Source of the DNA: an uncultured Eubacteriales bacterium | GTDB taxonomy: Bacteria > Acidobacteriota > Aminicenantia > Aminicenantales > Saccharicenantaceae | Direction: 5' to 3' | NCBI GenBank assembly: GCA_964458655.1 | Contig: CAYWJT010000002.1 | Span: 13,299 to 77,298, forward strand | Length of the DNA stretch: 64,000 nt | Shown here: piece after piece, positions 13,805 through 35,326 of the stretch | How the letters are laid out: the number at the start of each line of letters is the position of its first letter | Numbering within the stretch: the stretch's first letter is position 1 | Made by a program: the position numbers and the translations under genes | Notes under the pieces: model-generated | Database searches by the model: none | The model's input: the letters and a program-made list of their open reading frames with translations, nothing else | Told to the model about the DNA's origin: nothing

Positions 13805-15859
13805 TCAGTCGGCCGCGATTCGAACCGAGAGAGGGGACCTGGACTCGATCGGCAGGAAGATGACGAGGTTGTCGCCTTCGAGCCGGCGGTCCAGGCCGAC
13901 GCGAACCTCGGGGCAGTCCTTTCCGTTCACATAGACACTTGGCTTCTCGCCGTTCCAGCCCCGGACGCGCAGCACGGGATGGATGGCCGGCGCCGCGGGC
14001 CCCGCCATCAGGCTGATCTCGAAGCTCTTGGGTTTTCCGCCCTCGTTGACGAGCTGATAGCAGCGCTCGCTGCGGTCGTACCCTTCGGAACGAACGTCGG
14101 GGTCCCTCACGATGAGCTCGGGGGGATAAGCCCAGGACCGGCCGAAGGCCACGACCTGGGGAAAGGCCCAGTCCGTCATGCCGTAGAGCCCGGCCCAGAA
14201 CTCCCGGTCGTCTCGTTCGTGGATGACAGGTTCGGAGATCGGGAAGCTCGAACAATGGGAGGGGCGGTCAGACGTCAGGGTCGTCCGGCCGTCGCAGCGG
14301 GCCTGTCCCACCGGAAAATGGTTGCAGCCGCTCGCCCGACCGTAGGCCGCGAGGTTCTCGAATCGAAGGAACATCCTGTTGCCCGGCTCGAAGCAGATGA
14401 AGGGTTTGTTGACAGATTTGAACTGGTACTGCTGCACCGTATAGGGATGGGAGACCTCCCAGCTGAAAGGCCCGTAGGGCGGGGCGTTGGGATTCTCGAC
14501 GAAGGACACCCGGGCCGTCTTCCCGGCGTAGTCGGCGACGGTGACATAGTCCTTCTCCAGAAGGTCGGACACGATCTGACCGGGGTGAAGCAGGGCCAGA
14601 GTCTCCTGGAACTGACGCGGTTGCCCGAGCGTTCCCTTCTTCCAGCTGACCTTGCGGATCGCGCTGGCGTCGGGATAGATGTAATAGTACTCGTCGACCC
14701 AGCATTCCCAGCCGGTCTTGGGGTCCACCCGCCAGGTGTGGTCGTAGGCGCTGACCGGCGCGTAGCGCCAGTGGACGACGACTCGCGCCTCCGTGTTCTC
14801 GATAATCCTGACATGGGAGAACCGGCAGTGTCGGTCCTGCATGTGCTCGTAGCAACCCTCCCGGTCGCTCTTCTTGTCCTCCCAAGCTTCCACGCTCTGG
14901 TCGGACATCCAGTTCTCGTTCTCGGAAACCCACGAGGCCCCGTAACGGATGCCGCGCCAGAACACCAGCTTGACGGCGGAACCGGGGAAAGAGACGACGA
15001 TGTCCGGGTCCTGTTCGACCGGCCAGAGCCGGTCCCAAGCCGGGTAATACTTCAGCTTCGTATAGTAGGCGCCGAACCGCCCGGGGTTCTTCTCGACGGT
15101 GGGCAGCCGTCGCGGGGCGATGTCCGGCTTGAGGCCGTGGCCCAGCGCCGCGTGTTCCCTTATCGTCGCGGCCGGCAGGGCCTGGTCGTAGACGCGCACT
15201 TCGTCCACGATGCCGTCCAGGCCGAAATAGGCCGGCACCGTCCCCCAGGTCCTGTGGATGTCGGAGGGCTTGTCCGGCCGGGCGACCATTCCCAGGAGAT
15301 AGCCGGCTCGGGCGTGCGTGATAGCGCCGTTGATCTTGTTCGAAGCGATGAGCGTTCCGTTGATGAAGAGAGCCATCTCGGACCGGGCGCGGTACACGCC
15401 AACTACGTGCATCCACGTCCGCAAGGGTATCGCGTCCCGCGCGCTGGTGCAAGCCAGCCATTGGCCGCCGACGGCGCACTCCAGCGAGGCCTGACCCAGG
15501 GGGCCGATCATCAACCTGTAGCCTTTCACTTCATCGGACTCCGAGGTCAGGATCGGGCACCAGTTCCAGGGGTATTCGCCGAGCGCAATCCAGGCCTCGA
15601 CGGTGATCTCGTCGCCCGTCACGACCCGGTCTTGTCCCGAGGACCTTAGACAGGTGGTGAAGCCGTCCAATCGAAGCCCGTCGCCCTCGACGCCCGGGGC
15701 TTTCTCGACATAGCCTTCCACGGTGTCCCAGGTCTTGCTGACGACCTCCCGTGTTCGGGAACCTTCCAGCTTGTCGAAAGACCAATGAGCCTTTGGTTCC
15801 TGCGCGGCGGCTTTCACAACGCAGACGGCCAGGACGATGACCGCGAATTTCCTGTTCAT
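13805..15859 (-). CDS. Large secreted LamG-like (concanavalin-type) domain protein of unknown function, paralog family member A
   Basis: The ATG at 15859 (MNRKFAVIVLAVCVVKAAAQEP signal) is preceded by GGGAGGG; the track start at 15967 lies upstream. LamG-type segment GIVDEVRVYDQALPAATI. Conserved blocks shared with 32549-35326: HVRIIENTEARVVVHWRYAPV and WECWVDEYYYIYPDA. Confidence 0.6.
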   Translation of the reverse strand: MNRKFAVIVLAVCVVKAAAQEPKAHWSFDKLEGSRTREVVSKTWDTVEGYVEKAPGVEGDGLRLDGFTTCLRSSGQDRVVTGDEITVEAWIALGEYPWNWCPILTSESDEVKGYRLMIGPLGQASLECAVGGQWLACTSARDAIPLRTWMHVVGVYRARSEMALFINGTLIASNKINGAITHARAGYLLGMVARPDKPSDIHRTWGTVPAYFGLDGIVDEVRVYDQALPAATIREHAALGHGLKPDIAPRRLPTVEKNPGRFGAYYTKLKYYPAWDRLWPVEQDPDIVVSFPGSAVKLVFWRGIRYGASWVSENENWMSDQSVEAWEDKKSDREGCYEHMQDRHCRFSHVRIIENTEARVVVHWRYAPVSAYDHTWRVDPKTGWECWVDEYYYIYPDASAIRKVSWKKGTLGQPRQFQETLALLHPGQIVSDLLEKDYVTVADYAGKTARVSFVENPNAPPYGPFSWEVSHPYTVQQYQFKSVNKPFICFEPGNRMFLRFENLAAYGRASGCNHFPVGQARCDGRTTLTSDRPSHCSSFPISEPVIHERDDREFWAGLYGMTDWAFPQVVAFGRSWAYPPELIVRDPDVRSEGYDRSERCYQLVNEGGKPKSFEISLMAGPAAPAIHPVLRVRGWNGEKPSVYVNGKDCPEVRVGLDRRLEGDNLVIFLPIESRSPLSVRIAAD

Positions 15860-16052
15860 TTTCCGTTCCCTCCCGTCCAATGATGGAGTCCTATCCCTAG
15901 CCGGCATCCCTCCGGCGGGCCGAAAGCGACATCGCGGCCGAAGCGTAGAGTGCAACGCCCGGCGCAATCCATTTCTCCTCGTCCAGAGTCAGGGGCTTGA
16001 CCGCATAGGCGATCAGCGGCACATCTAGGGTTAGACATATTTCTATTTTATT

Positions 16053-16070
16053 ACATTAAGAAATAAATGT
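16053..16070. promoter_or_regulatory. Short inverted repeat ACATT-N8-AATGT in the AT-rich divergent intergenic region
   Basis: Read directly. Weak on its own. Confidence 0.2.
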
Positions 16071-16222
16071 CTTTTAAATATCGTCCGGGAGCGACTAAAG
16101 CCAATCGCTCTTTCGTTAGTCCCTTAGGGGCAGGGAGCCGGGCTCTCGAAGAATCAGATGGATGTGGGAGAAATGAAGCCGCCCGCGCTTTTTTCAAAGG
16201 GCAAGATATGAAAGGGGGCCAT

Positions 16223-16282
16223 GGCGATATCGGCCTTTCTCTTTGAGTATGCCTTCGACCCGGTTTTTTCGGCGATATCGGC
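16223..16282. repeat. Two copies of the 12-bp direct repeat GGCGATATCGGC (each with palindromic core CGATATCG), 48 bp apart, in the 512-bp divergent region upstream of the second ROK regulator
   Basis: Copies at 16223-16234 and 16271-16282. Candidate operator half-sites. Confidence 0.35.
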
Positions 16283-16371
16283 GGTCGAGAAAATTAATAA
16301 AAAAATAGTTGCATTTTAATTTTATTTGAATTACTTTATTAGCGTAAGAAACAAATAAGAAATTTCCAGCG

Positions 16372-17643
16372 ATGCTCAAAGAGATCGCCCACCGGAAAAC
16401 ACAGACGCGGGCCGGCAACGCCAAACTCATAAGTGAACTCAATAAGGTCAAGGTCATTAATCTCGTCCGCGACAATTACGGAATCTCTCGAGCGGATCTG
16501 ACCAAGCGCAGCGGGTTGAGCGCCCCGACCATTTCCCGGATCATCGACGGTCTTATCCGCGAAGGGTTCGTCACTGAGATAGGGGCCGGAGTCTCCCGCG
16601 GCGGCCGCAAGCCGACCTTGCTCAGGTTCTCCGGCATCGACAGCTACATCATCGGCATCGACCTCGGGACTACGAACATCTACGGCGTCCTGACCGACCT
16701 CGAGGCCAACGTTATCGCCGAGATCAAGATCCCGACCAAAGTCGAAGGGGGATTCGACCAGGTCATGGAGCGGACATCCGAAGTGATCAGCGAGCTGCGC
16801 GGTCATCTCCGGAACCGACAGGGCCGGATCTGCGGCATCGGTCTGGCCATCGCCGGGCTTATCAACAGGGAGCTCGAGATCGTCGAATTCTCGCCGGACT
16901 TCCATTGGCACAATGTCGATGTCCGGTCCTACCTCAGCCGCAAGCACGCCGACATCCCGATCGTCTTCGACAATGTGACCAGGGTCATGGCCTTGGGCGA
17001 GATCTGGTACGGCGCCGGGCGTAATTACCAGGACTTCGTCATGGTCAACATCGGCTACGGCATCGGCGCAGGCATCATCATCCGCGGCACCCCACTCTAT
17101 GGGAGCCTGGGCATGGCCGGAGAGTTCGGGCACATCACGCTCGACAGGGATTCGGATGTCCAATGCGAATGCGGCAATTTCGGCTGCCTCGAAGCCTTGG
17201 CTTCCGGCAACGCCATCGCCAAGGCCGCCCGGAAGGAGCTCGAACGCGGCGCCGCCTCAGAGCTCCTCAAGGCCTGTAACGGCGATCCGGCAAGCCTGAC
17301 AGCCGAGATGGTGGCCCAGAGCGCCAAGCGGGGAGACCTGCTGGCCTGGAGAGTCTTCGACCTGGCGGCCGAATACATCGGTATCGGCATCGCCGGTTTG
17401 ATCAACCTGTATAATCCCGAGGCCGTTTTCATCGGCGGCGGGGTCGCCCAAGCCGGCGACATCCTCTTCGACCGGGTCCGGAAGACCGTCCAGGCGCGGG
17501 CGCTGAAGAAGACAGCGGAGGCCGCTTCCATCCTGCCCGTGACGTTCGGACCGAGAGCGGCCGTCATGGGAGCCGTTTCGCTGATCTTAAGCGGCATCGT
17601 CAACCTCAATTTCGAACAAGACAACTATTCTGCAACGAGTTGA
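16372..17643 (+). CDS. ROK-family transcriptional regulator (second paralog)
   Basis: wHTH GISRADLTKRSGLSAPTISRIIDGL, then ROK fold with HITLD...CECGNFGCLE. About 55-60% identical by eye to the 62-1333 protein. Confidence 0.85.
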   Translation: MLKEIAHRKTQTRAGNAKLISELNKVKVINLVRDNYGISRADLTKRSGLSAPTISRIIDGLIREGFVTEIGAGVSRGGRKPTLLRFSGIDSYIIGIDLGTTNIYGVLTDLEANVIAEIKIPTKVEGGFDQVMERTSEVISELRGHLRNRQGRICGIGLAIAGLINRELEIVEFSPDFHWHNVDVRSYLSRKHADIPIVFDNVTRVMALGEIWYGAGRNYQDFVMVNIGYGIGAGIIIRGTPLYGSLGMAGEFGHITLDRDSDVQCECGNFGCLEALASGNAIAKAARKELERGAASELLKACNGDPASLTAEMVAQSAKRGDLLAWRVFDLAAEYIGIGIAGLINLYNPEAVFIGGGVAQAGDILFDRVRKTVQARALKKTAEAASILPVTFGPRAAVMGAVSLILSGIVNLNFEQDNYSATS

Positions 17644-17859
17644 AATGACCACCTTTATGACAACGAGGCTCGGCTAGGATCATGATTGGAATGCGATCGG
17701 CGCATGCAGAGCGAGAAGTTTCTTGTCTAACTATATTAATTAATCGAAACCTTCGCAGGCAGACCCTGCGCCAAGGAGGTGGAAGCACGAAATACAGGGG
17801 ATTTACGGCTAAAGGGATTTGAGCGGAGTCTATCGGCAATCGAGAAAGGAGAGCAAAGA

Positions 17860-20800
17860 ATGAGCAAAAAGAGAATCTTCTTGCTCATCGTGGCCTGCCT
17901 CGCGCTGTCGGCGACCGCGACCTCGCAAGAGTTGCAGTCCGGAGCGATCAGAGGCCGGGTCACAGATGACACGGGCGAGCCCCTGCCGGGCGTTTCGATC
18001 ACCATCTCCGGCCCGGCGCTGATCGGCAAGGTCACGACCGTGACCAACGCCGAGGGGATGTTCAGGGCCCCCGCCCTGACGCCGGGGACCGGCTACGAGG
18101 TCCGCGCCGAGCTGAGCGGGTTCGAGACGACCGTTCAGAAGGGGCTCATCGTCAACCTCAACAAGACGATCACGATCGAGATCGTCATGAAGGCGTCGAC
18201 CCTCCAGCAGGAGGTCACGATCGTCGCTCCCACCCCGACCGTCGACGTCGTCAGGTCGGCGACGTCGCAGACGATCACGAGCGATGTCCTGGCGTCGCTG
18301 CCCTTGGGCCGCAATGTCAGCTCGGTCCTGGCCATGGCGCCGGGCGCCGTCGGCGGCAGCGTCCACGGCGACGGACGCGGCGAGGTCGGCGCCGTCATGG
18401 ACGGCATCCAGATGTCGGAACCCGACGTCGGCGGCGTGGCCTTCGGCTACGACGTGGGCATCGCCTGGGACATGGTGGAGGAGTTCGAACTCGTGACGGC
18501 CGGCGCCTCGGCCCAGTTCTTCAACAGCACGAGCGGCCTGACCAACGTCCTCATGAAATCGGGCGGGAACACGTTCTCGGGCTCGGCCACCGTCTATTAC
18601 ACGAACAAGCACCTGTCCCAGATCCATCTCCCGGAGCCGGACCTCCAGGCCCTCAACCTGGCCAAGCCCTCCATCCCGGTTTACTCGGTCGACACTTCCT
18701 TCTCGCTGGGCGGCCCCGTCATCAAGGACAAGATCTGGTTCATGACCGAGTTCCGGATGATCAACAGCAAGTACACCGGCGACTTCCGGCCCACGGTCAT
18801 CAACGGCAAGAGCTACGACAACTACGACCGCAAGTTCCCCAACTACGTCGGCTTCCTTAAGTTCTCGGCCCAGATCGCCAAGAACCTCCGCGCCTCGGCC
18901 ATGGGGCACTACTCGATGCAGGACGTTCCCTACTACTACAGCGGCTGGGGCCTGACCAACGAGGCCAACAAGAACAACAAGCCGATCCGCTTCAACTACG
19001 GCGCCACGGTTTCCTGGACCGTCAACAACAGCACCATCCTCGACCTTCGCGCCGGCGGCCTGTATTTCAAGTGGACGGGCAAGAACACGAAAGAAGCCAA
19101 CCCGGACGGTCCCCACTTCTATGATGATTACACGGGCTACAGCTGGGGCAACACCGGCGCCACAGAGTACACCTACAAGCCCAAGCTCAACGTCTCCTTG
19201 ACCGCCACCAAGTTCATTGACAACGTCCTCGGCGGCAACCACGAGATCAAGGCCGGCCTCGAATGGGAGCGGAACCGCGGCGACTGGGGTTTCTACATGA
19301 AGCAACCCTTGTTCTGGACTTACTACGACGGGAGCCCCTATTATTGGGCCGCTCAGAACGGCGGCGTGACCGACCCGGTCTACGGCGACGGGCTGCTCGA
19401 ATACGCCGTCATGGGCGCAACTGAGGGATCCGGCGCCGAGATCGGCATCACCTCGCGGGTCGGCGGCTTCCTCCAGGATTCCTTCACCGTCAAGCGCCTG
19501 ACCGTCAACCTGGGCTTACGGGTCGACCACCTGAAAGCGTGGAGTCCCGGCCGCTCCAAGGGCGCCGCCGTCGACCCCGTCGCGCTGGCCCTCGGCGAGA
19601 CCTACTTCGAGCCCATCTACGGCCTCAATCCCTATGACGAAGTGGCCTACGACACTTGGGACAACGCCTTCCCCTACGGCACGTTCTTCTCCCCCCGCCT
19701 CGGCCTCACCTACGATCTTTTCGGCAACGGCAAGACGGCCCTGAAGGCGTCGTTCACCCGCCAGCAGGAGAGCTTCCCGACGGGGACATTCTCGGCCATG
19801 TATCCCTTGACGTGGCGATCCTTCACCTGGAACTGGTGGGACGATAACCACAACGGTCAGCCTGACGTGCCCGGCGTCGATCACTACGAAGAGGCCTACG
19901 GCGACACGCCTCTGGCCATGATCTCCACCGCTTACCTCGACGCCATCGACCCGAACGTCAAAGTGCCCTACGTTGACGAGATCACCCTCGGCATCGAGCA
20001 AGAGCTCGTCAAGAACCTCCGAGTCAGCGTCCGCTACATCCACAAGGACCGGAAGCGCATCATGGCCAGCGTCCTCTGGGACAAGGAGTCCGACAGGTAT
20101 TGGTACACCCATGACCTGGCCCCCGAATGGTGGATCCCGTTCACGACGACGGTCCCCGCGACCGGCTCCTATCCGGCCCAGGAAGTGACGATGTATTTCC
20201 TGTCCAACGACGCGCCCGACCAGTTCCGTCGTTTGACCAACGTTCCCGAAGCCAAGCTCAGGTACAACTCTCTCGAGATCAGCTTCGACAAGCGGCTGGC
20301 CAAGGGCTGGATGCTCGGCGGGTCCGTCAACTACACGATGCTCAAGGGCAACTACTCCCTGGGCTATGCCTCGTGGGCTTCGCAATACGTCTTCTCCAGC
20401 CCGAACTCGTTCGTCAACGCCTACGGCGAAATGACCTACAGCCGGCCCCTCATCATCAAGCTCTACGGCACGTTCACCCTCCCATACAGCTTCATGTTCT
20501 CCTTCTTCTACACGCACTACGACGGCTCGCCGTGGGGACGGACGGTCAAAGTTAATCCGCCGGCCGATTGGGCCGCGGCCCACAACGCCAGCACGACGGG
20601 CTATACGATCTATGTCAACCCGCCCGGCACCTACCGGAACGAGGCTTCGGACAATCTCGACCTGCGGCTCGGGAAGGACTTCAAGCTCGGCCCCGGAACG
20701 GTCGAAGCTTATGTGAACATCTTCAATCTCCTCGGCGCCTATACGCTCACGGTCGCCAAGAACCCCGGCGGGACCTGGCGGCCCATCGCTGAGAACACGA

Positions 20801-20889
20801 CAGAAGGGACCTACACAGTCGGTTCCACGGGCCTGCGCGGTTTCGCCGGTTCCCGTCAATTCCGGTTCTCGTTGTCCTACAAGTTCTAG
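17860..20889 (+). CDS. TonB-dependent outer-membrane receptor with N-terminal CarboxypepD_reg domain
   Basis: The ATG at 17860 is preceded by AAGGAG (the track start at 17779 lies upstream). Signal peptide. GAIRGRVTDDTGEPLPGVSITISGP is a carboxypeptidase-regulatory-like domain. Plug-like segment LPLGRNVSSVLAMAPGAV. Very long beta-barrel ending in the aromatic C-terminus RFSLSYKF. Confidence 0.75.
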   Translation: MSKKRIFLLIVACLALSATATSQELQSGAIRGRVTDDTGEPLPGVSITISGPALIGKVTTVTNAEGMFRAPALTPGTGYEVRAELSGFETTVQKGLIVNLNKTITIEIVMKASTLQQEVTIVAPTPTVDVVRSATSQTITSDVLASLPLGRNVSSVLAMAPGAVGGSVHGDGRGEVGAVMDGIQMSEPDVGGVAFGYDVGIAWDMVEEFELVTAGASAQFFNSTSGLTNVLMKSGGNTFSGSATVYYTNKHLSQIHLPEPDLQALNLAKPSIPVYSVDTSFSLGGPVIKDKIWFMTEFRMINSKYTGDFRPTVINGKSYDNYDRKFPNYVGFLKFSAQIAKNLRASAMGHYSMQDVPYYYSGWGLTNEANKNNKPIRFNYGATVSWTVNNSTILDLRAGGLYFKWTGKNTKEANPDGPHFYDDYTGYSWGNTGATEYTYKPKLNVSLTATKFIDNVLGGNHEIKAGLEWERNRGDWGFYMKQPLFWTYYDGSPYYWAAQNGGVTDPVYGDGLLEYAVMGATEGSGAEIGITSRVGGFLQDSFTVKRLTVNLGLRVDHLKAWSPGRSKGAAVDPVALALGETYFEPIYGLNPYDEVAYDTWDNAFPYGTFFSPRLGLTYDLFGNGKTALKASFTRQQESFPTGTFSAMYPLTWRSFTWNWWDDNHNGQPDVPGVDHYEEAYGDTPLAMISTAYLDAIDPNVKVPYVDEITLGIEQELVKNLRVSVRYIHKDRKRIMASVLWDKESDRYWYTHDLAPEWWIPFTTTVPATGSYPAQEVTMYFLSNDAPDQFRRLTNVPEAKLRYNSLEISFDKRLAKGWMLGGSVNYTMLKGNYSLGYASWASQYVFSSPNSFVNAYGEMTYSRPLIIKLYGTFTLPYSFMFSFFYTHYDGSPWGRTVKVNPPADWAAAHNASTTGYTIYVNPPGTYRNEASDNLDLRLGKDFKLGPGTVEAYVNIFNLLGAYTLTVAKNPGGTWRPIAENTTEGTYTVGSTGLRGFAGSRQFRFSLSYKF

Positions 20890-20907
20890 GCGTTGTAAGA
20901 TGCAAGC

Positions 20908-20939
20908 GGGAGGGGGAGGCCCTCCGGTCTCCCCCTCCC
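20908..20939 (+). terminator. GC-rich stem-loop (11-bp perfect stem, 10-nt loop) 19 nt after the TonB-receptor stop; no U-tract
   Basis: GGGAGGGGGAG-gccctccggt-CTCCCCCTCCC read directly. Confidence 0.45.
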
Positions 20940-21111
20940 ACCCTTGCTCGCACGGGGCTTTGTCCATCCGGGAGGCCACACGGTCTTTCGGGGGATGGTT
21001 CCGGCGGGCCAAAGTATTCGGCCCAGCCTGGCCGGAGTGCAAGTCCCGGCTCGCCCGGCCGTGGTTCCATTGTCGCAGAGCAGGGCGCGAAAGATGCCTT
21101 AGGAGACCACG

Positions 21112-22737
21112 ATGACCCAAGCCTCTCTTGGCATTCCCGTCGTCGATCTTTTGATTATCGTCGCCTACATCCTCGGCATCCTGGCGGTCGGTATCCTCTC
21201 GACCCGGGGCCTGGGGCGCACGGCCAATGGCTATTTCCTGGCCGGACGGTCCTTGCGCTGGGGGATGGTCGGCTCAGCGATGTTCGCCGCCAACATCTCG
21301 ACCATCCATCTCGTCGGACTGGCGGCCTCAGGCTATTCTGACGGCCTCGTCTGGGGCAATTTCGAATGGATGGCGACTTTCACCCTGGTCCTCCTGGGGC
21401 TGGTCTTCGCTCCTTTCTATTTCCGGAGCCGCATCTCGACCCTGCCCGAATTCCTGGAGAAGCGCTACGGCCCCGGGGCGCGGATCATGCTGGCCTTCAT
21501 GGCCATCCTGGCCGCCCTCTTCATCCACATCGGGATGAGTCTCTACGCCGGCGCGGCGGTCTTCCGGCAGTTCTTCGGCATCGACGTCGTGACTTCGATC
21601 ATCATCATCTCGATCGTCACCGGCATCTACACCATCCTGGGCGGCCTCAAGGCCGTGGTCGTCACGGAGTCCATACAGGCCGTGATCCTAATCCTGGGGG
21701 CAATCGTGGTCACGGCCTTCGCCGTCCTGGCCCTGCCTTCGCACGGCATCCACGGCTTGGCGGACTTCAAGGCGGCCGTCAAACCCGATCAACTCAGCAT
21801 GCTGCAAACCCACAGCGCGGCCGGGCTCAACTGGTACGCAGTCTTCCTCGGTTATCCCATCCTCGGGATCTGGTACTGGTGCACCGATCAGACCATCGTC
21901 CAACGCGTGCTCGGCTCCCGGACTGAGAAAGACGCCCAGTACGGGGCGCTGTTCGCCGGGCTGCTCAAGATCCTGCCCGTCTTCATCCTCGTCTTCCCCG
22001 GGGTCGTCGGCTATGTCCTGTTCCGGGACGTCATCGGGTCCGACGCCAACCAGACCCTGCCGGTCCTCCTCGTCCGGCTCATCCCGACGGGCATCAAGGG
22101 CCTTATCGCCGCGGGCCTGCTGGCGGCCTTGATGAGCACCATCGCCGCCGCGCTCAACAGCTCGGCGACGCTGGTGGCCGTCGATATCGTCAAGCGGGTC
22201 AAGCCCCAGACTTCGGACCGGGCCCAGATCCGGGTCGGACAGGTCTGCGCCGTCGCCGTCATGCTCCTGGCCATGGCCTGGTCGACCCAGGGCGGTCGGT
22301 ATACGAGCATCTTCGAGGCCATCAACACCATCGCCAGCTACCTGGCCCCGCCGATCACGGCCGTCTTCCTGTGGGGGGTGTTCTGGAGGCGCGGGACTAG
22401 CCAGGCCGCGCTGACGACCCTGATCGCCGGTTTTCTCCTCGGCGTCGTCTCGTTCCTGGTCGACCTTCCTGTCTTCGGCACAGAGAAGGTCATTACTCAC
22501 GGGCTCGGCATCCCCTTCATGATGCAGGCCTGGTGGATGTTCTCTCTGTGCAGCCTGATGTTCGTCGTAGTAAGCCTGTTGACGCCCCGCCCTGACCCGG
22601 AAAAAATCGACGCCCTGACCTGGAAAAGCCCGGCCGCCTTCCTGACCCAAGGCCGAATCGACGGAGTCACCGACCCCCGGGTTCTGGCCTGTGGGCTGTT
22701 GGTTTTATTAGCGGCCCTGTATTATATCTTTCGCTGA
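21112..22737 (+). CDS. Sodium:solute symporter (SSF/SGLT family)
   Basis: 13-14 predicted TM helices with SSF-type spacing. AGGAGA lies 7 nt upstream of the ATG. Confidence 0.85.
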   Translation: MTQASLGIPVVDLLIIVAYILGILAVGILSTRGLGRTANGYFLAGRSLRWGMVGSAMFAANISTIHLVGLAASGYSDGLVWGNFEWMATFTLVLLGLVFAPFYFRSRISTLPEFLEKRYGPGARIMLAFMAILAALFIHIGMSLYAGAAVFRQFFGIDVVTSIIIISIVTGIYTILGGLKAVVVTESIQAVILILGAIVVTAFAVLALPSHGIHGLADFKAAVKPDQLSMLQTHSAAGLNWYAVFLGYPILGIWYWCTDQTIVQRVLGSRTEKDAQYGALFAGLLKILPVFILVFPGVVGYVLFRDVIGSDANQTLPVLLVRLIPTGIKGLIAAGLLAALMSTIAAALNSSATLVAVDIVKRVKPQTSDRAQIRVGQVCAVAVMLLAMAWSTQGGRYTSIFEAINTIASYLAPPITAVFLWGVFWRRGTSQAALTTLIAGFLLGVVSFLVDLPVFGTEKVITHGLGIPFMMQAWWMFSLCSLMFVVVSLLTPRPDPEKIDALTWKSPAAFLTQGRIDGVTDPRVLACGLLVLLAALYYIFR

Positions 22738-22768
22738 GGCCGCCCTATGCGGCCAGGGGAGTTGAGAC

Positions 22769-23794: not shown

Positions 23795-23808
23795 CAGGAG
23801 CCAAGCCA

Positions 23809-24969: not shown

Positions 24970-25057
24970 GGGCCGGGCCGGCGAGACGACGGGACGCGGC
25001 CGCGAACGGCGAACGGCGCTCGCGGCCGGACAGACCGGCTTCGGAAAGGAGGCCTGG

Positions 25058-27526: not shown

Positions 27527-27531
27527 AGGCC

Positions 27532-28914
27532 ATGGACAGGCGCGAATTCATGAAGAAGGCCGGGGCCGGGCTCCTCGCCGCAGGGGCCCTGCCGGGTCAG
27601 AGCCGGCGTCCGGACGGCCGGGCCGACTGGAAGCCCCTAGACGGACGGAGGATCCTGACATTCAATTCCGTTATCCGGGTCAATCAAATCGAGGTCACGC
27701 GGACGCGGAACGAGGGCTTCGACGAAGCCGACATCCACACGCCGGAGAATGTCTGGGCGCTCCGCAAGGCATTCGCCGCCGGATGGCCCGGCGCGCCGAT
27801 GACCTGGGCCTTCAGCTGGCGGGCCCTGTTCGATGAGCGCGAGAATTACCGCCGCATCCGCGCCCTCATGCCCGAGTTCCACGACCGGTTCGGCGACGAC
27901 GTGACGTTCATCCCCGGGGCATATTTCGCCAACGCCTACAACACGCGGGAGCAGGTCAACCGCGACCTCCATGACGGCCTGGCCAGGGTCTCGGAGATCA
28001 TGGGCGGCGGTTTCCGGCCCAAGAGCGTAATCGCCGGCTTCCTGGCCGCGGCCAACCAGAAGTACCTGGCCGAGAAGGAGGGGATCCACGTTTGCCAGGG
28101 CAACATCTGGAGCCAGTATGCCATCGACAACCAGGACGGCGAGGGCTCGATCTGCTATCCCTACTATCCGTCGACCGAGCACTTCTGCAAGCCGGCCCAG
28201 AGCGCGGCGGATTTCATCGACTGCGTCAACCTGGACGGCTGGACCTGCGATTTCCTCGCCGCCCGCCGCCAGGGCCAGGATTGGTCCAAGGCCCAGCGCA
28301 GCCGCATGGGCGTCGGGCCCATCGAGACGATCCAATGGTTCGGCCCGGAGGTCGGCCTGGCCCAGATGGTCGAGACGACGGCCGCCCACTTCGACGCGGG
28401 CTTCGCCCTGAACGGCTGGGCCTGGGTCACGAATTGCTGGGAAGTCTCGCTCGTCGCGCCGATCGGTCATCTGGAGGTCCTGACGCGGTGGACGCAGCGC
28501 ATCCGAGAGCGCTGGCCCACGGCTGAGTGCCTGACGCTGGGCGATTTCGGCGGATCCTATCGCGCCCAATACCCGGATAACGAGAACCTGAGGTACCGGT
28601 TCGTCCAGAGGGGCACGGGCGTCGGCGGGTCCGAAATTCAGCTCGAGATCCGCTGGTTCATGTGCAAGGAGTTCCGCATGGCGCTGCTGCGGAGCTGGAG
28701 AGAGAAGGGGCCGGAGCGGGTCATCGACTTCACCCGCTACGACCTGCCCGCCCAAGAGCCGCAAGGGCTGACGCGGAACTGGAGCCTGATGGGCCGCATC
28801 AACCAGAAGCGGACCCGCCCCCAGGACGAGCCGATCCCCTTCGAATCACTCGCCCCGGAAGAGAAGGCGCTCGTCTTCCGGCACTTCCCTGATTTTCGTC
28901 CCATCGACTCTTAA
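27532..28914 (+). CDS. Hypothetical Tat-secreted protein of unknown function
   Basis: The ATG at 27532 is 5 nt after the GH95 stop, suggesting translational coupling. Tat-like N-terminus MDRREFMKKAGAGLLAAGALPG. Cys/Trp-rich; no family recognised. The 26242-28914 track ORF is this gene plus an artefactual upstream read-through. Confidence 0.55.
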   Translation: MDRREFMKKAGAGLLAAGALPGQSRRPDGRADWKPLDGRRILTFNSVIRVNQIEVTRTRNEGFDEADIHTPENVWALRKAFAAGWPGAPMTWAFSWRALFDERENYRRIRALMPEFHDRFGDDVTFIPGAYFANAYNTREQVNRDLHDGLARVSEIMGGGFRPKSVIAGFLAAANQKYLAEKEGIHVCQGNIWSQYAIDNQDGEGSICYPYYPSTEHFCKPAQSAADFIDCVNLDGWTCDFLAARRQGQDWSKAQRSRMGVGPIETIQWFGPEVGLAQMVETTAAHFDAGFALNGWAWVTNCWEVSLVAPIGHLEVLTRWTQRIRERWPTAECLTLGDFGGSYRAQYPDNENLRYRFVQRGTGVGGSEIQLEIRWFMCKEFRMALLRSWREKGPERVIDFTRYDLPAQEPQGLTRNWSLMGRINQKRTRPQDEPIPFESLAPEEKALVFRHFPDFRPIDS

Positions 28915-28970
28915 GCAAAGGAGCCCTCATGCCACACCAAACGTCCCTTCGGGCCGGGGAGAACGAGAAT

Positions 28971-31247
28971 ATGGCCAAAAGATCATCTATCAGCATGACG
29001 GCAGCCGTTTTCGCGGCCCTGGTCTTTTGCGCGGCCTTGGCCGGCCAGGAGAAGGCCGCCGATCCCAGCCGTCTGACCCTGGAAAGGATCTTCGCGTCCC
29101 GGGAGTTCGCTCCCGAGCGCTTCGGGCCGGCCCGCTGGATGAGCGACGGGTCCTCCTACACGACACTCGAGCCCAGCGCCGAAGTCAACGGCGGCCGCGA
29201 CCTTGTCCTCTACCGGGCCGAGACCGGCCGGCGGCAGGTGCTTGTCTCCGCGGCCAAGCTCATCCCGCCCGGATCGAAGGAGCCGCTCGCCATAGAGAAC
29301 TACGCCTGGTCGCCGGACGGCAAGGTCCTCATCGTTTTCACCAACTCCCAACGCGTCTGGCGCCAGAACACGCGGGGGGATTTCTGGACTTACGAGCTCG
29401 CCTCGGGCCGTCTTCGACAGCTCGGGGCGGGCTTCGAGCCCTCGAGCCTGATGTTCGCCAAGCTCTCGCCGGACGGTCTCAAGGCCGCCTACGTCTTCAG
29501 GAACAATATCTACGTCGAGGACCTGGCCTCCGGCCGAACGACCCAACTGACCTTCGACGGGTCCGAGGACATAATCAACGGAACTTCCGACTGGGTAAAC
29601 GAGGAGGAATTCTCCATCCGGGACGGGTTCCGCTGGTCCCCTGACAGCCGCTCCATCGCCTTCTGGCAGTTCAACACGCGCAACGTTCCGGTCTTCACGA
29701 TGATCAACAACACCGATACGCTCTATCCCAAGGTGACGACCTTCAAGCACCCCAAGCCCGGCCAGACCAATTCGGCCGTCCGTGTCGGCGTCGTCCCGGC
29801 CGGCGGAGGAGCGCCCGTGTGGATCAGGACGCCCGGCGACCCGCGCAACACCTATATCGCGCGGCTCGAATGGGCCGGGAACTCGCGCGAGGTCGTCCTC
29901 CAACACCTCAACCGCCTGCAGAACACGCTCACCGTTTTTCTCGGTGACGCGGCCACAGGGGAGGTCCGGAGCGTCTTCACCGACCGCGACGAGGCCTGGG
30001 TGGAGATCATGGAGGAATTCGTCTGGCTCGACGGCGGCCGGAGCCTTCTCTGGCTGAGCGAGCGCGACGGCTGGCAGCACGCCTATCGGGTGTCGCGTGA
30101 CGGCCGCGACATCCAGCTTCTGACGCCCGGCGACTACGACGTCCTCAGCGTCGACGCGGTGGACGAACGGGGCGGCTGGCTCTACGTCACGGCTTCGCCG
30201 GCGGACCCCACGAAGCGGTTCCTCTACCGAGTCCGCATGGACGGCAAGAGCGCCCCCGCGCTCGTCGGGCCGGCCGGCCAGACCGGCGTCCACCGGTACG
30301 ACATCTCACCCTCGGCCCAGTGGGCCTTCCACACCTTTTCCAGCCTCGACTCGCCGCCCGTGACCGAGCTCGTCCGGCTGCCTGACGGTCGGAGCGTCCG
30401 GACGCTGGCCGCCAACACGGAGCTCAAGGCCAAGGTCAACGGCCTGGCGAGGAAGCGGGTCGAGTTCTTCAAGCTCGATATCGGCGACGGCGTCCTGGTG
30501 GACGGCTGGCGGATCCTGCCGCCCGATTTCGATCCGGCCGGCAAGTACCCGCTCTTCGTCTATGTCTACGGCGAGCCAGCCGGCCAGACCGTCCAGGACA
30601 ACTGGGGTGGCAGCGGCTATCTCTGGCATCTCATGCTGGCCCAGCAGGGCTACGTCGTCGCGAGCTTCGACAACCGCGGCACGCCGGCGCCGCGCGGCCG
30701 GGCCTGGCGCAAGAGCATCTATCGCCAGATCGGCATCCTGGCTTCGCGCGACCAGGCCGCGGCGGTCAAGGCGGCCTTGGCGGCGTGGCCGTTCATCGAC
30801 GCCGAGCGTGTCGGGGTCTGGGGCTGGAGCGGCGGAGGCTCGATGACGCTCAACGCCATGTTCCGCTATCCCGACCTCTACAAGACGGGCATCTCCGTGG
30901 CTTCGGTGCCGGATCAGCGCCTCTACGACACGATCTACCAGGAGCGTTACATGGGCCTGCCGGAAGACAACGCCGAAGGGTATGCGCAGGGCTCGCCCAT
31001 CACCTTCGCCAAGGACCTTAAGGGCCGCCTGCTCATCGTCCACGGCACCGGTGACGACAATGTCCACTATCAGGGGTTCGAGCGTCTGATCAACGAGCTC
31101 GTCGCCCACAACAAAGCGTTCGCCATGATGGCCTACCCGAACCGATCGCATAGCATCTCCGAAGGACGGGGCACGACGCTCCACCTCTATACGCTGTTCA
31201 CCCGGTTCCTCAACGAGAACCTGCCGCCGGGAAGCCGCGCGCGCTGA
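28971..31247 (+). CDS. Dipeptidyl-peptidase IV-like S9 serine peptidase
   Basis: The ATG at 28971 (MAKRSSISMTAAVFAALVFCAALAGQE signal). N-terminal DPP IV beta-propeller region. C-terminal alpha/beta hydrolase with nucleophile motif GWSGGGSMTL and HGTGDDNVHY. Confidence 0.85.
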   Translation: MAKRSSISMTAAVFAALVFCAALAGQEKAADPSRLTLERIFASREFAPERFGPARWMSDGSSYTTLEPSAEVNGGRDLVLYRAETGRRQVLVSAAKLIPPGSKEPLAIENYAWSPDGKVLIVFTNSQRVWRQNTRGDFWTYELASGRLRQLGAGFEPSSLMFAKLSPDGLKAAYVFRNNIYVEDLASGRTTQLTFDGSEDIINGTSDWVNEEEFSIRDGFRWSPDSRSIAFWQFNTRNVPVFTMINNTDTLYPKVTTFKHPKPGQTNSAVRVGVVPAGGGAPVWIRTPGDPRNTYIARLEWAGNSREVVLQHLNRLQNTLTVFLGDAATGEVRSVFTDRDEAWVEIMEEFVWLDGGRSLLWLSERDGWQHAYRVSRDGRDIQLLTPGDYDVLSVDAVDERGGWLYVTASPADPTKRFLYRVRMDGKSAPALVGPAGQTGVHRYDISPSAQWAFHTFSSLDSPPVTELVRLPDGRSVRTLAANTELKAKVNGLARKRVEFFKLDIGDGVLVDGWRILPPDFDPAGKYPLFVYVYGEPAGQTVQDNWGGSGYLWHLMLAQQGYVVASFDNRGTPAPRGRAWRKSIYRQIGILASRDQAAAVKAALAAWPFIDAERVGVWGWSGGGSMTLNAMFRYPDLYKTGISVASVPDQRLYDTIYQERYMGLPEDNAEGYAQGSPITFAKDLKGRLLIVHGTGDDNVHYQGFERLINELVAHNKAFAMMAYPNRSHSISEGRGTTLHLYTLFTRFLNENLPPGSRAR

Positions 31248-31267
31248 GGAGGGGCGGGAGACGCGGA

Positions 31268-32482
31268 TCATGTCCCTTCATAAACGCCGTACTCCATCAG
31301 GGTTTCCCACCAGGCGATGATATTCTCCGGCGGGACGCCGGCCTGGATCACATGGATCGGCGCGAATACGTACCCTCCGCCAGGGGCCAGATCCTCGATG
31401 CGACGGCGCGTTTCGTCGCGGACCTGCTGGGGCGTTCCGAACGGCAACACAGATTGTGTATCACAACTGCCGCCCCAGATGGTCAGGTCGGCCCCGAACG
31501 CCCGCTTGAAACGTTTCGTATCGTCCATCCCCTTGCAGTTTACCTGCCAGGGGTTGAGGATGTCCACGCCGGCCTCGATCAAGAGTGGGATGAAATCCCA
31601 GATCGCTCCGTCGCAGTGGAAGAAGATGAAGATCTCGGTCCGGGCCCGGCTCTTGAGGAACTGGAACAGCCGGCGATGGTACGGCCAGATCAGGTCCTTG
31701 TACATCGCCACGGAAACCAGCGGCCCGGTTTGGGTGCCAAGATCGTCGGCGGTCGAGAGGACCAGCGTGTGCTCATCTAGCAGGTCGAGCACCCGGCCCC
31801 AATAAGCCGTCGTGATCTCGAGCTCTTTGGACATGATCGCGTGGACCATCGCAGGGTCCGTGACCATGTCTATGAAGAACTGCTCATATCCCCGCATCCA
31901 CATGGCGTGTTCCCACATGCCCGCGTGCATCCGCTCGACGACCACGCCGCGGCGCTCTTGCTTGACCACGTGGTCGACGCGCCGCTTGAGACCCTCGTAG
32001 CGGGCCGGATCGAGCGCGTCGGGCCAGGCATAGCGCTCTACGTCCCGCGCGGTCCGGCAGCCCGCCAGAGGGCTGAGGTAGAGGTCATAGTAATGCCCCC
32101 CGTTCCTGGGCATCTGCCAGCCCATCCCGAACTCGTCGATCAATCGATAGTGGTCGCCGACCAGGCCGAGGTCCCGAGCCGGACCGGCGTGGGCCGGAGC
32201 GTTCGGTCGGACGCTCTTCACGTCCACGCGAAGACGATCGCGCACGTCGTCTCCCGTGTCGGCCATCTGCGTGACCCGATCGAGAACTTGGGCTTCGCCG
32301 GGCAGGCCGAGCGCCTGGCGCAAGGCCGTGAGGGCGCGGACGTTGATGCCGGTGACCATCGAGCCGCCGAGGTCAAACGGGACCCGGTCCGGCTCGCGAT
32401 GGTGCAGGGCCGTGACCAGGCGCTGGTAGCTCGTCCATTCCCGCGCGCCGGAGTCCCGCCGCCGGAGTCCGTTGGCCGTCAT
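31268..32482 (-). CDS. Uroporphyrinogen-decarboxylase (URO-D) family protein
   Basis: URO-D-like N-terminus (YQRLVTALHHREPDRVPFDLGGSMVTGINV) and a TIM-barrel length of about 400 aa. Last gene of a minus-strand operon. Confidence 0.55.
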   Translation of the reverse strand: MTANGLRRRDSGAREWTSYQRLVTALHHREPDRVPFDLGGSMVTGINVRALTALRQALGLPGEAQVLDRVTQMADTGDDVRDRLRVDVKSVRPNAPAHAGPARDLGLVGDHYRLIDEFGMGWQMPRNGGHYYDLYLSPLAGCRTARDVERYAWPDALDPARYEGLKRRVDHVVKQERRGVVVERMHAGMWEHAMWMRGYEQFFIDMVTDPAMVHAIMSKELEITTAYWGRVLDLLDEHTLVLSTADDLGTQTGPLVSVAMYKDLIWPYHRRLFQFLKSRARTEIFIFFHCDGAIWDFIPLLIEAGVDILNPWQVNCKGMDDTKRFKRAFGADLTIWGGSCDTQSVLPFGTPQQVRDETRRRIEDLAPGGGYVFAPIHVIQAGVPPENIIAWWETLMEYGVYEGT

Positions 32483-32548: not shown

Positions 32549-35326
32549 TCAATAGATCTCATATTTCAGCGGCTGGAAAGACCGTTGCCTGACCCAGATG
32601 ACCATCGTCTGCGTGCCGTCGGTGTCTCGGATGATCCCCTGCCTGAAATCAGGTCCGGGAACCTGGACCTGGCCGTCGATCTTCAGGCGGACGGGAGACG
32701 AACCGCCCCAGCCGCGTATGACAAAGCAAGGGTTCAAAACGGGGTTCTTTTCGGAGCCGTTCAGCCCGAAAGACAGTCGCTCCCCCTCACGGGTCAGCAG
32801 GAAGGCCTTCTGTCTCGGGTCGAAGCCGGTGCTTCTGCCGCCGTGCAGGTCGACGACCGCCGGGGGGAGATTCCAGGAGCGGTTCAGCGCCGCAAGGTCG
32901 GCGGCCGGAAGATCCGTCAGCCCATAGATGTTATAGGCCTCCATACGGCCGTCATCCAGAAGATGGTGCCGTCCGTTCAGCGTGCCCAGGCACGAACTGC
33001 TTGTCCGGTCCCTCCCGGTCGCTACGGTGCCGTCGCTCGGCAGCAGGCCGACGGGATAATGGCTCCAGGCGTTGTAACTTGAGAACCCCGGGGCGAGCCT
33101 CATCGATTCCCACTGGCTGTAAGGGACCCAGAACGAACCGGTCTGGCCGATATTGAAATGCTTGTACTTGGACCTGAGATTCAAATAGACGAGGTTCTTC
33201 TCGCCGGGGATGGGCGCGCCCTTCCGGACCGTCCGACCCGAGGAGTAGTCCCAGTTCTCGGTCTGCCCGTCCATGTTGGCGATGGTGATCGATTCGGGGA
33301 AGACATTGTCCTCTGGTCGGGTCCCCGGCTGATTGAGCAGCTCGTTCTGCTGGGACTGCGTGTCGGGGTATTCGGCCATTCGGCCGCTCACCTGATAGCG
33401 GACGGACACGGCATCGGGATATATATACCAATACTCATCCGTCCAGAGCCCCCAGCCGTCCGCGTCCGGCCAGAGCCACTCGTATCCGATGCTTACGCTC
33501 GCGTTGCGCCAATGCACGACGACCCGGGCGTCGGTGTTCTCGATGAGGCGGACATGGGAGTACCGGCAAATCTTGTCCGACATGTGCTCGTAGCACTGAT
33601 CGGTGTAATTCTCCGGGCCTTGATCGTTGACCCAGATGCCCTTCGGGCCCGGCTCCGTGACCAGGCTGGGGAGGTAGTTGGTCCCGCGCCAGAACAGGAA
33701 CCGGTTGGGCCTGTCATCGAACGATACGACGATGTCGGCATGGTCTCCCACTCGCCACAGGCCGTCCCATTCCGGACTGAATTGGAGTTTCGTATATTCC
33801 GCCCCGAAGCCCTTGGTGTTCACCTGCCCGGCGGGCAAAACCCAATGGCTCAGGGGGGTTGAGATGTCGGGTTTGAACGACTGATAGTCCGAGCGTATCG
33901 CCGACTCGTCCAGCGCCCGGTCGAAGACGCGCACTTCATCAATGAGCCCGCTGAAGACCATGTTAGAGAGGAACGACTTGGTTATTTCTCGTTCGCACGC
34001 CCAGGGATAGCTCTTTTCGTGAGCCATGCCGATGAAGAGGTCCAGGTCCGGCGCATCCTGGACAGCCCCTTTCGCGGATCCGGAAGCCGCCAGGGCTCCG
34101 TCCAAGTAGATCGCAAAGCCCTTCGCTTTTCGATACGTCGCAGTCACGAACGTCCATCTTAGAAGGTCAACAGCCTTGCTCGTCGTCAGCCCCTCCCACC
34201 GGCCGTCAAGGCCGGCTTCGATGGAGATCCGGCCCAAATGATCCAGGCCCAGGCGATATCCGGCGCGTTTGCCCCGGATATGGTCAATGATGCCCGACGA
34301 GTTCCGGGGATCTTTGAAATACATCCATTCGGCATCCGAAGTCATCATGCGGCTATGGTCAACGATGCCCGACCAGTTCCAGGAATACTCCTGAGGGGCG
34401 ATCCAGGCCTCGATGGTGAAATCGCCGCGGATGTTCGGGAGTTCCCGAGAGGGCACGGTCACTCGGTTGGTGTAGCCGTCGAACGACAGACAAGTCCCGG
34501 AAACGCCTCTTCTCCAATAGCTGTCCACCCCGCCGATGCGGCACTTCGACCCCTTGACGCTCTCCGTCGTGAAGTCGTCCTGGGCGGAAAGCCCCTCATC
34601 GAACCGCATCCACAGCGCAGGGGACTCGACTCCTCCTTCGACGACTGGCGCTCCCGGGACGCCGTCGCCGGGCCGGCGCTGCAGCCGCGCCGGGGTGGTG
34701 CTCTGCACCTTTATCCCGGATGAGGTCAGTTCGAGGATCTGCGTCGTCTTGTTCAAAGGGTCGTTCCAATCGTCAAGCCGGTAGCAACCCTTCTTCACTT
34801 CCCGCGTTATCCGCCCATCGGCGGTGATCGTGAAGTACTCCTCGGCGTAATCGGCGAAGTAGCTGCCGATATCGCCGCTATAGGTCCTTTGGAAGTCGGT
34901 GAAGTGCGGGCCGTCCAGGTCCGGGGCATACCTCCAGTGAACGACGACCCTGTCGGGCGAACTCTCGATCAGGCGGACATAGGAACACTTGTTGATCTTA
35001 TCGGGCCGCTCCGGAGGTCCGTCGCCGGCTGCCGGCAGAATGCGGTCCACGAAATACTTCGTCCCCGACGGCTGCCAGTAAGGCAGGTAGCCGAATTCAC
35101 GGCAGAACACGAATCGGCCTTTCGTGCCGAACTTGACGACGAGGTCGGCATATTTGCCCGTATTGTTATGATCGTCATAGTCCAACCGCGTGTAATAGGC
35201 GAAGAAATCCGACGGCTTGGAGGGGGCGCAAAAGGCCATGACCAGCGCCAGGACGGCTGTCCCGCATGAAGACAGAATGCGAACAACCAAAGCGCCGCTA
35301 GAAGCGAGGTTTCGGGCCCGTTCCAT
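32549..35326 (-). CDS. Large secreted LamG-like domain protein of unknown function, paralog family member B (925 aa) with an internally duplicated module
   Basis: The ATG at 35326 is preceded by AAGGAG; signal peptide. LamG-type IDEVRVFDRALDESAIRSDYQSF. The module ...C.Y.RLIE...RVVVHWR.A... occurs twice (CSYVRLIESSPDRVVVHWRYAPDL and CRYSHVRLIENTDARVVVHWRNASV). The C-terminal approximately 110 aa are homologous to 13805-15859 and to the small ORF at 47822. Confidence 0.6.
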   Translation of the reverse strand: MERARNLASSGALVVRILSSCGTAVLALVMAFCAPSKPSDFFAYYTRLDYDDHNNTGKYADLVVKFGTKGRFVFCREFGYLPYWQPSGTKYFVDRILPAAGDGPPERPDKINKCSYVRLIESSPDRVVVHWRYAPDLDGPHFTDFQRTYSGDIGSYFADYAEEYFTITADGRITREVKKGCYRLDDWNDPLNKTTQILELTSSGIKVQSTTPARLQRRPGDGVPGAPVVEGGVESPALWMRFDEGLSAQDDFTTESVKGSKCRIGGVDSYWRRGVSGTCLSFDGYTNRVTVPSRELPNIRGDFTIEAWIAPQEYSWNWSGIVDHSRMMTSDAEWMYFKDPRNSSGIIDHIRGKRAGYRLGLDHLGRISIEAGLDGRWEGLTTSKAVDLLRWTFVTATYRKAKGFAIYLDGALAASGSAKGAVQDAPDLDLFIGMAHEKSYPWACEREITKSFLSNMVFSGLIDEVRVFDRALDESAIRSDYQSFKPDISTPLSHWVLPAGQVNTKGFGAEYTKLQFSPEWDGLWRVGDHADIVVSFDDRPNRFLFWRGTNYLPSLVTEPGPKGIWVNDQGPENYTDQCYEHMSDKICRYSHVRLIENTDARVVVHWRNASVSIGYEWLWPDADGWGLWTDEYWYIYPDAVSVRYQVSGRMAEYPDTQSQQNELLNQPGTRPEDNVFPESITIANMDGQTENWDYSSGRTVRKGAPIPGEKNLVYLNLRSKYKHFNIGQTGSFWVPYSQWESMRLAPGFSSYNAWSHYPVGLLPSDGTVATGRDRTSSSCLGTLNGRHHLLDDGRMEAYNIYGLTDLPAADLAALNRSWNLPPAVVDLHGGRSTGFDPRQKAFLLTREGERLSFGLNGSEKNPVLNPCFVIRGWGGSSPVRLKIDGQVQVPGPDFRQGIIRDTDGTQTMVIWVRQRSFQPLKYEIY

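Follow-up and report, generated by a model that had tools for sequence, protein, structure and literature searches.

In the present study, we analysed two related genes in a 64,000-nucleotide stretch of DNA (contig CAYWJT010000002.1 of assembly GCA_964458655.1; this whole stretch is hereafter called the window) from an uncultured bacterium of the Aminicenantia. The two encoded proteins, here named P-A and P-B, may be secreted members of a new family of carbohydrate-active enzymes, probably hydrolases, that would act on sulfated glycans or glycoconjugates rich in 6-deoxyhexoses. We put the probability of this reading at roughly 0.45, somewhat short of an even chance. It is the best-supported reading because the proteins are secreted and carry a large module without a name, the predicted fold of this module is used catalytically elsewhere, and their loci are rich in sulfatases and in enzymes for L-fucose and L-rhamnose and hold no recognised backbone cleaver. 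The homology of the two proteins, their domain anatomy and fold, the size of the family, its conservation pattern and its gene neighbourhood are described below as they were found; catalysis, hydrolysis, an internal or a chain-end cut, and the substrate of the domain are what we infer.

Domain anatomy and predicted fold

P-A (A-type) is encoded on the minus strand at 13805-15859, where the listing of open reading frames (ORFs) and their translation gave 684 amino acids (aa) from an ATG at 15859. The gene is monocistronic and divergent from a ROK regulator gene at 16372. The protein begins with a signal peptide read from the sequence (residues 1-19, 15803-15859, minus strand, MNRKFAVIVLAVCVVKAAA|QE), and its N-terminus MNRKFAVIVLAVCVVKAAAQE is a typical Sec signal that is conserved among homologues. 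A LamG domain of the Laminin_G_3 family (PF13385) occupies residues 78-233 (15161-15628, minus strand; E 1.5e-17, 64.6 bits), and a C-terminal domain without a name occupies residues 250-684 (13808-15112, minus strand). According to its model, this last domain is a galactose-mutarotase-like beta-supersandwich followed by a C-terminal beta-sandwich.

P-B (B-type, 925 aa) is encoded at 32549-35326 on the same strand. It contains a partial N-terminal copy of the domain at residues 33-200 (34727-35230, minus strand; domain profile positions 7-158), a LamG domain of the same family at residues 283-477 (33896-34480, minus strand; E 1.1e-20, 74.7 bits) and the full C-terminal domain at residues 495-925 (32552-33844, minus strand). 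Both LamG matches lie above the gathering score of 27.6 bits, in agreement with an earlier note on this DNA, made from the sequence alone, which had described secreted paralogs with a LamG-like domain. The same note had seen collinear homology between the 684-aa and 925-aa proteins, and BLASTP aligned them with 32% identity over 674 columns (E 6e-86) at these coordinates. It had also placed the shared module twice in the longer protein. This was borne out by BLASTP, in which residues 38-180 of P-B aligned to residues 259-409 of P-A (E 2e-13), and by the domain profile, which matched P-B at residues 33-200 (E 1.4e-22) and 495-925 (E 5e-144). The extra copy (N-module) is not peculiar to the source genome of P-B: the full domain is present in 352 of the 389 family proteins collected, and the partial N-terminal copy in 175 of them. 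The suggested secretion held for both subfamilies. The signal peptide is of type I in P-A and its relatives, and P-B (…LVMAFC) and its Aminicenantes relatives (LALASC or LVLSSC in close ones) have a lipobox-like L-x-x-C signal, so P-A would carry a cleavable signal peptide and P-B would probably be lipid-anchored.

The C-terminal domain of about 435 aa was undescribed in every resource that we searched. It had no match in Pfam-A (2025) at E values up to 1, LamG being the sole Pfam match of both proteins, and nothing relevant in NCBIfam (2026). Searches of single proteins against all PDB chains by phmmer gave LamG-type matches only, and a family profile of 71 sequences likewise found only LamG-type proteins among the PDB chain sequences, even at E values up to 10. 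The domain does not belong to PF01263 (aldose 1-epimerase/galactose mutarotase), and the searchable literature gave no relevant account of it. The claim that there is no recognisable catalytic family therefore stands for Pfam-A, NCBIfam and the PDB. The public records have one name for the family, "LamG domain-containing protein". The N-terminal or central domain is indeed a bona fide PF13385 domain; however, this name covers the accessory domain alone and leaves the larger and better conserved C-terminal domain nameless. A Pfam scan of 30 long and diverse members found no known catalytic domain in them, and their accessory domains were LamG, PKD, Calx-beta, fn3, Big_2, dockerin, type IX secretion tails and F5/8 type C. 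Since these partners are all accessory, the C-terminal domain is the sole catalytic candidate, in the usual layout of a secreted carbohydrate-active enzyme.

Structure prediction followed by a fold search, which the earlier note had proposed, gave a galactose-mutarotase-like supersandwich. The AlphaFold model of full-length P-A, built with 37 close homologues, reached a predicted local distance difference test score (pLDDT) of 75 with poor conserved loops and was excluded from the fold search. The model of the domain alone, built with 71 diverse sequences, is all-beta with a pLDDT of 94.6 and a predicted template modelling score of 0.94. Its best structural neighbours were the C-terminal domain of glycoside hydrolase (GH) family GH38 (2wyh, score 15.4), the GH174 endo-1,3-fucanases 8jd7 (14.4) and 9k1g (14.2) and the exo-rhamnogalacturonan lyase 5xq3 of polysaccharide lyase (PL) family PL26 (14.2). 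Other galactose-mutarotase-like domains, namely GH2 domain 5, aldose epimerases, OpgG/OpgD and PL8 C-terminal domains, scored 10-13, and all structural neighbours of the model are carbohydrate-related. The structural alignments span about 240 of the 435 residues, and the C-terminal 130 residues or so appear in the secondary-structure map to form a separate beta-sandwich. We consider the supersandwich fold of the modelled domain solid; a particular kinship with GH174 is no more than a lead, since domains without a catalytic function score just as high.

The resemblance to GH174 endo-alpha-1,3-L-fucanases (Fun174A, 8jd7; Fun174Sb, 9k1g, solved in complex with fucotetraose) includes a similar size, with chains of 449-510 aa against the 435-aa domain, and the fact that these too are secreted bacterial proteins tied to the breakdown of sulfated fucose-containing glycans. 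In contrast, identity in the structural alignment is 6-7%, with about 55% of the domain aligned. Membership of a CAZy family is decided by sequence. In Fun174A, the key residues are D119, E120 and E218 (PMC11943901). With the galactose-mutarotase-like domains at large (GH38 C-terminal, GH2 domain 5, aldose 1-epimerases, the OpgG/OpgD beta-1,2-glucanases and PL8 C-terminal) the family has no sequence relationship; these proteins mostly carry the domain as an accessory to a separate catalytic domain, whereas the P-A/P-B family has no other catalytic domain and adds a C-terminal beta-sandwich sub-domain. With the PL26 lyase 5xq3 the domain shares 10% identity and has no profile match, and downstream unsaturated-uronate genes are missing from the loci of the family. 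The supersandwich fold is used catalytically in GH174, OpgG/OpgD and aldose epimerases, and a secreted multi-domain protein of a glycan-utilisation locus with this fold is a familiar kind of object.

Family spread, conserved residues and gene neighbourhoods

P-A has more than 2,125 relatives in a collection of 5.8 billion proteins, and the best 120 of them, at 58-93% identity to it, belong to Aminicenantes, Bacteroidales and Planctomycetota. P-B belongs to an orthologue group of its own in Aminicenantes, Bacteroidota, Phycisphaerae and Verrucomicrobiota. In a full HMMER scan, the C-terminal domain alone matched 967 clusters (at 50% identity) with E values up to 1e-3, 253 of which had E values up to 1e-30. 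Among the species-representative genomes of GTDB, those of Aminicenantes, Bacteroidota, Planctomycetota and Verrucomicrobiota gave 552 matches or more; a cultured carrier is Sedimentisphaera salicampi (WP_094759664), and the closest named relatives of the window are metagenome-assembled genomes (MAGs) of Aminicenantes. The habitats of the hosts are mostly freshwater, sediment and wastewater. A-type and B-type genes also occur together within single loci (L049; L numbers denote individual loci) and on shared contigs.

The A-type proteins have more than 150 invariant columns in an alignment of 37 sequences, and identity between phyla is about 60%. Conservation was compared in 116 non-redundant full domains (below 60% mutual identity) and 61 non-redundant N-modules. 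In the full domains, D286, E324, E338, D342, R359, R365, Y395, P396, D397, H514 and P516 were conserved in at least 94%. D286, D342, R365, E390 and R402 were present in 100% of the N-modules, and we read these as a structural signature of the repeated sub-domain; the adjacent pair D389-E390, conserved in the full domain, is also kept in the duplicated half-domain. Four of the residues were eroded in the N-modules, with E324 retained in 28%, E338 in 47%, R359 in 39% and Y395 in 29%. This selective loss fits a functional site kept in the full domain alone, and E324, E338, R359 and Y395, together with H514, which lies outside the repeated part, may form such a site.

The earlier note had argued for a carbohydrate-active role from the sulfatase, fucosidase and glycoside-hydrolase genes around P-A and P-B, a setting that the annotation of the window reproduced. 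Directly upstream of P-B is a sulfatase gene (35355-36860, minus strand), beyond which lies a GH106 alpha-L-rhamnosidase gene (36867-39860, minus strand); directly downstream is a URO-D-like (uroporphyrinogen decarboxylase family) gene (31268-32482, minus strand). Thus GH106, sulfatase, P-B and URO-D-like form a co-directional run, and a URO-D-like gene also follows the B-type gene in a Phycisphaerae MAG (L007:13034-13873). Divergent from P-A is an operon at 16372-31247 (plus strand), headed by the ROK regulator, which encodes a TonB-dependent-like outer-membrane protein, an SSF sugar symporter, Zn- and Fe-dependent alcohol dehydrogenases, GH95, a DUF3863/DUF3864 protein and a DPP-IV-like S9 peptidase (28929-31247, plus strand). 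An M24 Xaa-Pro aminopeptidase gene (12310-13704, plus strand) is convergent with P-A. Further along the window are a second GH106, a GH29, a GH63/MGH1-like hydrolase, two more sulfatases and a radical-SAM/SPASM protein, which is probably an (anaerobic) sulfatase maturase.

For the neighbourhoods in other genomes, 79 loci from at least four phyla, together 1.1 Mb long, were fetched, and their neighbouring genes were clustered and then annotated. The commonest neighbours were sulfatases, found in 24 of the 79 loci, followed by GH95 (21), homologues of the window gene at 6538-8190 (12) and GH106 (11). The SSF transporter and the M24 peptidase were each found in 10 loci, the Zn-dependent alcohol dehydrogenase in 8, a 686-aa family without a name in 7, and the DPP-IV-like peptidase, GH78 and the SASA esterase in 6 each. 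Sortilin/BNR, GH29 and GH31 recurred in 5 loci each, and GH127 and a SusC/SusD pair in 3 each. Housekeeping genes of the window (e.g. 59432-62509) recurred in none of the 79. The carbohydrate-active role gained support from conserved neighbourhoods in at least four phyla, and the co-occurrence with sulfatases, which the earlier note had proposed to check, was seen in 24 of the 79 loci. Being raw counts without a random-window comparison, the numbers only weakly support a sulfatase enrichment in sulfatase-rich phyla. GH95 and GH106 have only a few copies per genome, and for this reason their frequencies look well above expectation. Neither GH88 nor GH105 was present in the window or in the scanned neighbour clusters recurring in at least 3 of the 79 loci, the sole GH88 signal being a sub-threshold match within a GH127 protein, and no known family of internally cutting glycan enzymes or lyases was recognised in the window or among recurrent neighbours.

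Similar gene sets were seen in Bacteroidota and Verrucomicrobiota loci (L004, L046, L008). A Bacteroides MAG has a sulfatase, DPP-IV, an A-type gene, a second LamG paralog and GH95, with Sortilin/BNR and MGH1-like genes farther on. In a metagenome-derived chromosome of 5.4 Mb, an A-type gene lies amid two GH95, two GH106 and GH116 genes, and a Verrucomicrobiota locus has the order M24, GH95, DPP-IV, an unknown protein, a FAD oxidoreductase and a B-type gene. Proline-specific peptidases flank the glycan genes of the window, and such peptidases also lie beside family genes in MAGs that include Bacteroides and Verrucomicrobiota, with M24 recurring in 10 loci and DPP-IV in 6. This recurrence may mean that the natural substrate is a glycoprotein.

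Proposed function and rival explanations

In the proposed mechanism, the C-terminal domain of about 435 aa would be the catalytic module, and the LamG domain would be an accessory substrate-binding module; the extra N-terminal half-domain of the B-type proteins would be accessory as well. The substrate would be a sulfated glycan or glycoconjugate with a high content of 6-deoxy-L-hexoses (L-fucose, L-rhamnose), whose glycosidic bonds the enzyme would cut before or together with the neighbouring sulfatases and GH95, GH29, GH106 and GH78 enzymes. The enzymes of these four families are generally exo-acting. Since the loci hold no recognised backbone-cleaving enzyme, the family could supply the internal-cut step. 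The released sugars would be taken up through the TonB-dependent-like outer-membrane protein and the SSF symporter and catabolised with the Zn- and Fe-dependent alcohol dehydrogenases. The candidates for a catalytic or substrate-binding part are E324 and E338, which may be a carboxylate pair, and R359, Y395 and H514; a hydrolase is more likely than a lyase.

A fuller and more tentative proposal, which we hold to be possible but rather doubtful as a whole, is that the C-terminal domain defines a new family of glycoside hydrolases (or lyases) whose catalytic fold is a GH174-like supersandwich, and that this family performs the missing backbone cleavage of sulfated fucose- and rhamnose-rich glycans in bacteria of anoxic sediment, freshwater and wastewater, the uncultured Aminicenantes among them. 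The A-type and B-type proteins would then form a conserved pair, each with a specificity of its own. Among the carbon pools of marine and fresh waters, sulfated glycans containing fucose and rhamnose are some of the slowest to be degraded. To our knowledge, the enzymes that open their backbones are confined to a few young families (GH107, GH168, GH174 and GH187) and to endo-fucanases lately recognised in GH141, and the polysaccharide metabolism of uncultured Aminicenantes has not been tested experimentally. If P-A and P-B are enzymes, a new family would be added, a gene set common to Aminicenantes, Bacteroidota, Planctomycetota and Verrucomicrobiota would be explained, and a gene marker for sulfated-glycan metabolism in metagenomes would be available. 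The family is large (967 clusters), about 60% identical between phyla, confidently modelled and associated with GH95, GH106 and sulfatases, yet it is annotated only as "LamG domain-containing".

Several observations weigh against an enzymatic function of this kind. The family members are known from genes and predicted structure alone. The family profile had no sequence similarity to any PDB enzyme, and the GH174 structures 8jd7 and 9k1g, which are among the PDB chains, gave no profile match at E values up to 10; Foldseek found the same fold class with template modelling (TM) scores of only about 0.3. Some of the conservation must be structural, as several strongly conserved residues are also kept in the half-domain, which looks non-catalytic, and the candidate residues were picked by sequence conservation. 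In addition, sulfatases are abundant in several host phyla, and the neighbour counts stand without a matched random-window control.

The proposed mechanism would be lost chiefly if the domain had no catalytic role. P-A and P-B would then be glycan-binding or scaffold proteins, in which LamG and the supersandwich hold the sulfated glycan, on the cell surface or within the periplasm, for enzymes or for a TonB-dependent transporter. The half-domain duplication of the B-type proteins resembles tandem binding modules, and the Aminicenantes B-type proteins look like lipoproteins. Nevertheless, we regard this explanation as unlikely, because binding modules do not usually reach an identity of about 60% across phyla with invariant clusters of Glu, Asp, His and Arg, SusC/SusD-like pairs are recurrent neighbours in only 3 of the 79 loci, and the dockerin and type IX secretion tails that some members carry are a usual trait of secreted enzymes. 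That E324, E338, R359 and Y395 are lost from the half-domain in particular also suggests a site with a role other than folding.

Novelty would be threatened chiefly by CAZy families established since 2023. The most plausible of these is GH187, in which case P-A and P-B would be endo-alpha-1,3-L-fucanases and nothing new would be left. The founder of GH187 is the endo-1,3-fucanase Fun187A of Wenyingzhuangia aestuarii, whose mass of 101 kDa (PMC11943901) is near the length of about 890-925 aa of the B-type proteins. GH187 is reported in Bacteroidota, Verrucomicrobiota and Planctomycetota, and its fold, like that of the GH174 fucanases, is described as dominated by beta-sheets (PMC12534559); furthermore, it is not reliably detected by dbCAN v3 (PMC11685898), and names such as "LamG domain-containing protein" would be accounted for in this way. 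This resemblance is circumstantial, however, GH187 having been compared by description alone, and the mostly freshwater, sediment and wastewater hosts of our family differ from the mainly marine sources of the characterised fucanases (PMC12534559). We judge this identity to be quite improbable. Lower still we place a polysaccharide lyase for a sulfated heteropolysaccharide that contains uronic acid; the lyase would work with a Tyr/His base and an Arg neutraliser (Y395, H514, R359 or R365). The invariant Arg, Tyr and His and the rhamnosidases frequent among the neighbours would suit it; but the unsaturated-uronyl hydrolases GH88 and GH105 were missing from the window and the scanned recurrent clusters, and the family profile showed no similarity to any PL structure in the PDB. 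Finally, the target might be a proline-rich sulfated glycoprotein of a mucin-like or hydroxyproline-rich kind, with P-A and P-B working on its peptide or glycopeptide portion, either as glycopeptidases themselves or by lending specificity to the proline-specific peptidases encoded next to them. M24 (10 loci), DPP-IV-like S9 (6 loci), M1 and M14 peptidases recur in distant phyla, as do SASA esterase, BNR/Sortilin and GH31 genes. Yet no protease motif or fold was found in the domain, its structural neighbours are all carbohydrate-related, and GH95 and GH106 are much stronger associates, which makes this explanation very improbable.

Remnant of a third paralog and other genes of the window

The earlier note had counted three family members, the third being a small ORF at 47822-48200 that would reproduce the C-terminal module. 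Two intact paralogs were confirmed, within a large multi-phylum family rather than a local expansion; the third is a decayed remnant and no intact member. Homology is confined to 78 aa at 47937-48170 (plus strand), a probable pseudogene with 47% identity to residues 800-877 of P-B (tblastn E 8e-17; BLASTP E 1e-22). This match covers the start of the C-terminal beta-sandwich sub-domain and lacks the C.Y.RLIEN..ARVVVHWR motif that had been attributed to it. By tblastn there was no continuation in any other frame outside 47937-48170, and both an intact small paralog and a frame-shifted longer gene were thereby ruled out. The closest relative of the remnant is neither P-A nor P-B but a B-like gene of a Verrucomicrobiae MAG (68.6% identity over 102 aa). 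The short homologous stretch, the missing continuation and this distinct relative led us to consider the ORF a decayed remnant of a third paralog. The B-like gene itself (L041:14-2204) is spread over three reading frames, as might result from a long-read assembly error or from decay into a pseudogene.

On the opposite strand, a 91-aa ORF with a signal peptide (48062-48337, minus strand) has an ATGA overlap with the stop of the GH63/MGH1-like gene at 48334-50256. Its first 48 residues or so resemble the N-terminus of a 433-aa protein (L028:1392-2693; 41% identity, E 5e-6) that has a weak DUF4185 match below threshold. The 3' part of this ORF is antisense to the family remnant. Two truncated genes thus appear to meet near 48200, and this suggests a deletion in the past.

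The 550-aa protein encoded at 6538-8190 (minus strand) had neither a Pfam nor a PDB sequence match. Homologues of it occur at most 10 kb away from family genes in 12 of the 79 loci, from Bacteroidota, Verrucomicrobiota, Planctomycetota and Aminicenantes, where it is the third commonest neighbour; it seems to represent another unknown family linked to these loci. The 686-aa family (e.g. L021:11433-13490, minus strand), also without a Pfam or PDB sequence match, lies beside family genes in seven Bacteroidota loci. A 1062-aa ORF with a signal-like N-terminus (40087-43275, plus strand) between the two GH106 genes gave no Pfam match at E values up to 1e-3, no PDB sequence match and no homologue in the 79 related loci. 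Hidden membership of the family was rejected for the gene at 4594-6483 (g4), the 550-aa protein (g5) and the 686-aa cluster by hhalign probabilities below 1% (0.25% for the 550-aa protein). Likewise, the 1062-aa ORF (g22), g5 and the 686-aa cluster were rejected as GH174-like by sequence, having no PDB sequence match. The DUF3863/DUF3864 gene (27529-28914, plus strand), directly after GH95, belongs to a family with a solved structure whose function is not known, and a 57%-identical homologue is present in the similar Porphyromonadaceae locus L046.

Third-position GC content is 0.62-0.67 in the genes at 62-8190 and in the sulfatase gene at 50319-51890, against 0.77-0.91 elsewhere in the window. 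The block at 62-8190 holds a second ROK regulator, a sulfatase, the radical-SAM/SPASM protein, a DUF7402 protein and the 550-aa protein, and this low-GC segment may have been acquired horizontally. In two Aminicenantes loci with 81% identity (L001 and L002), five extra genes for a TauE sulfite exporter, a sulfatase, a FucU fucose mutarotase, a serine-dehydratase-like protein and an OCD-like protein lie between the P-A orthologue and the ROK regulator, where the window has about 500 bp; this block was either lost from the window or gained in L001 and L002.

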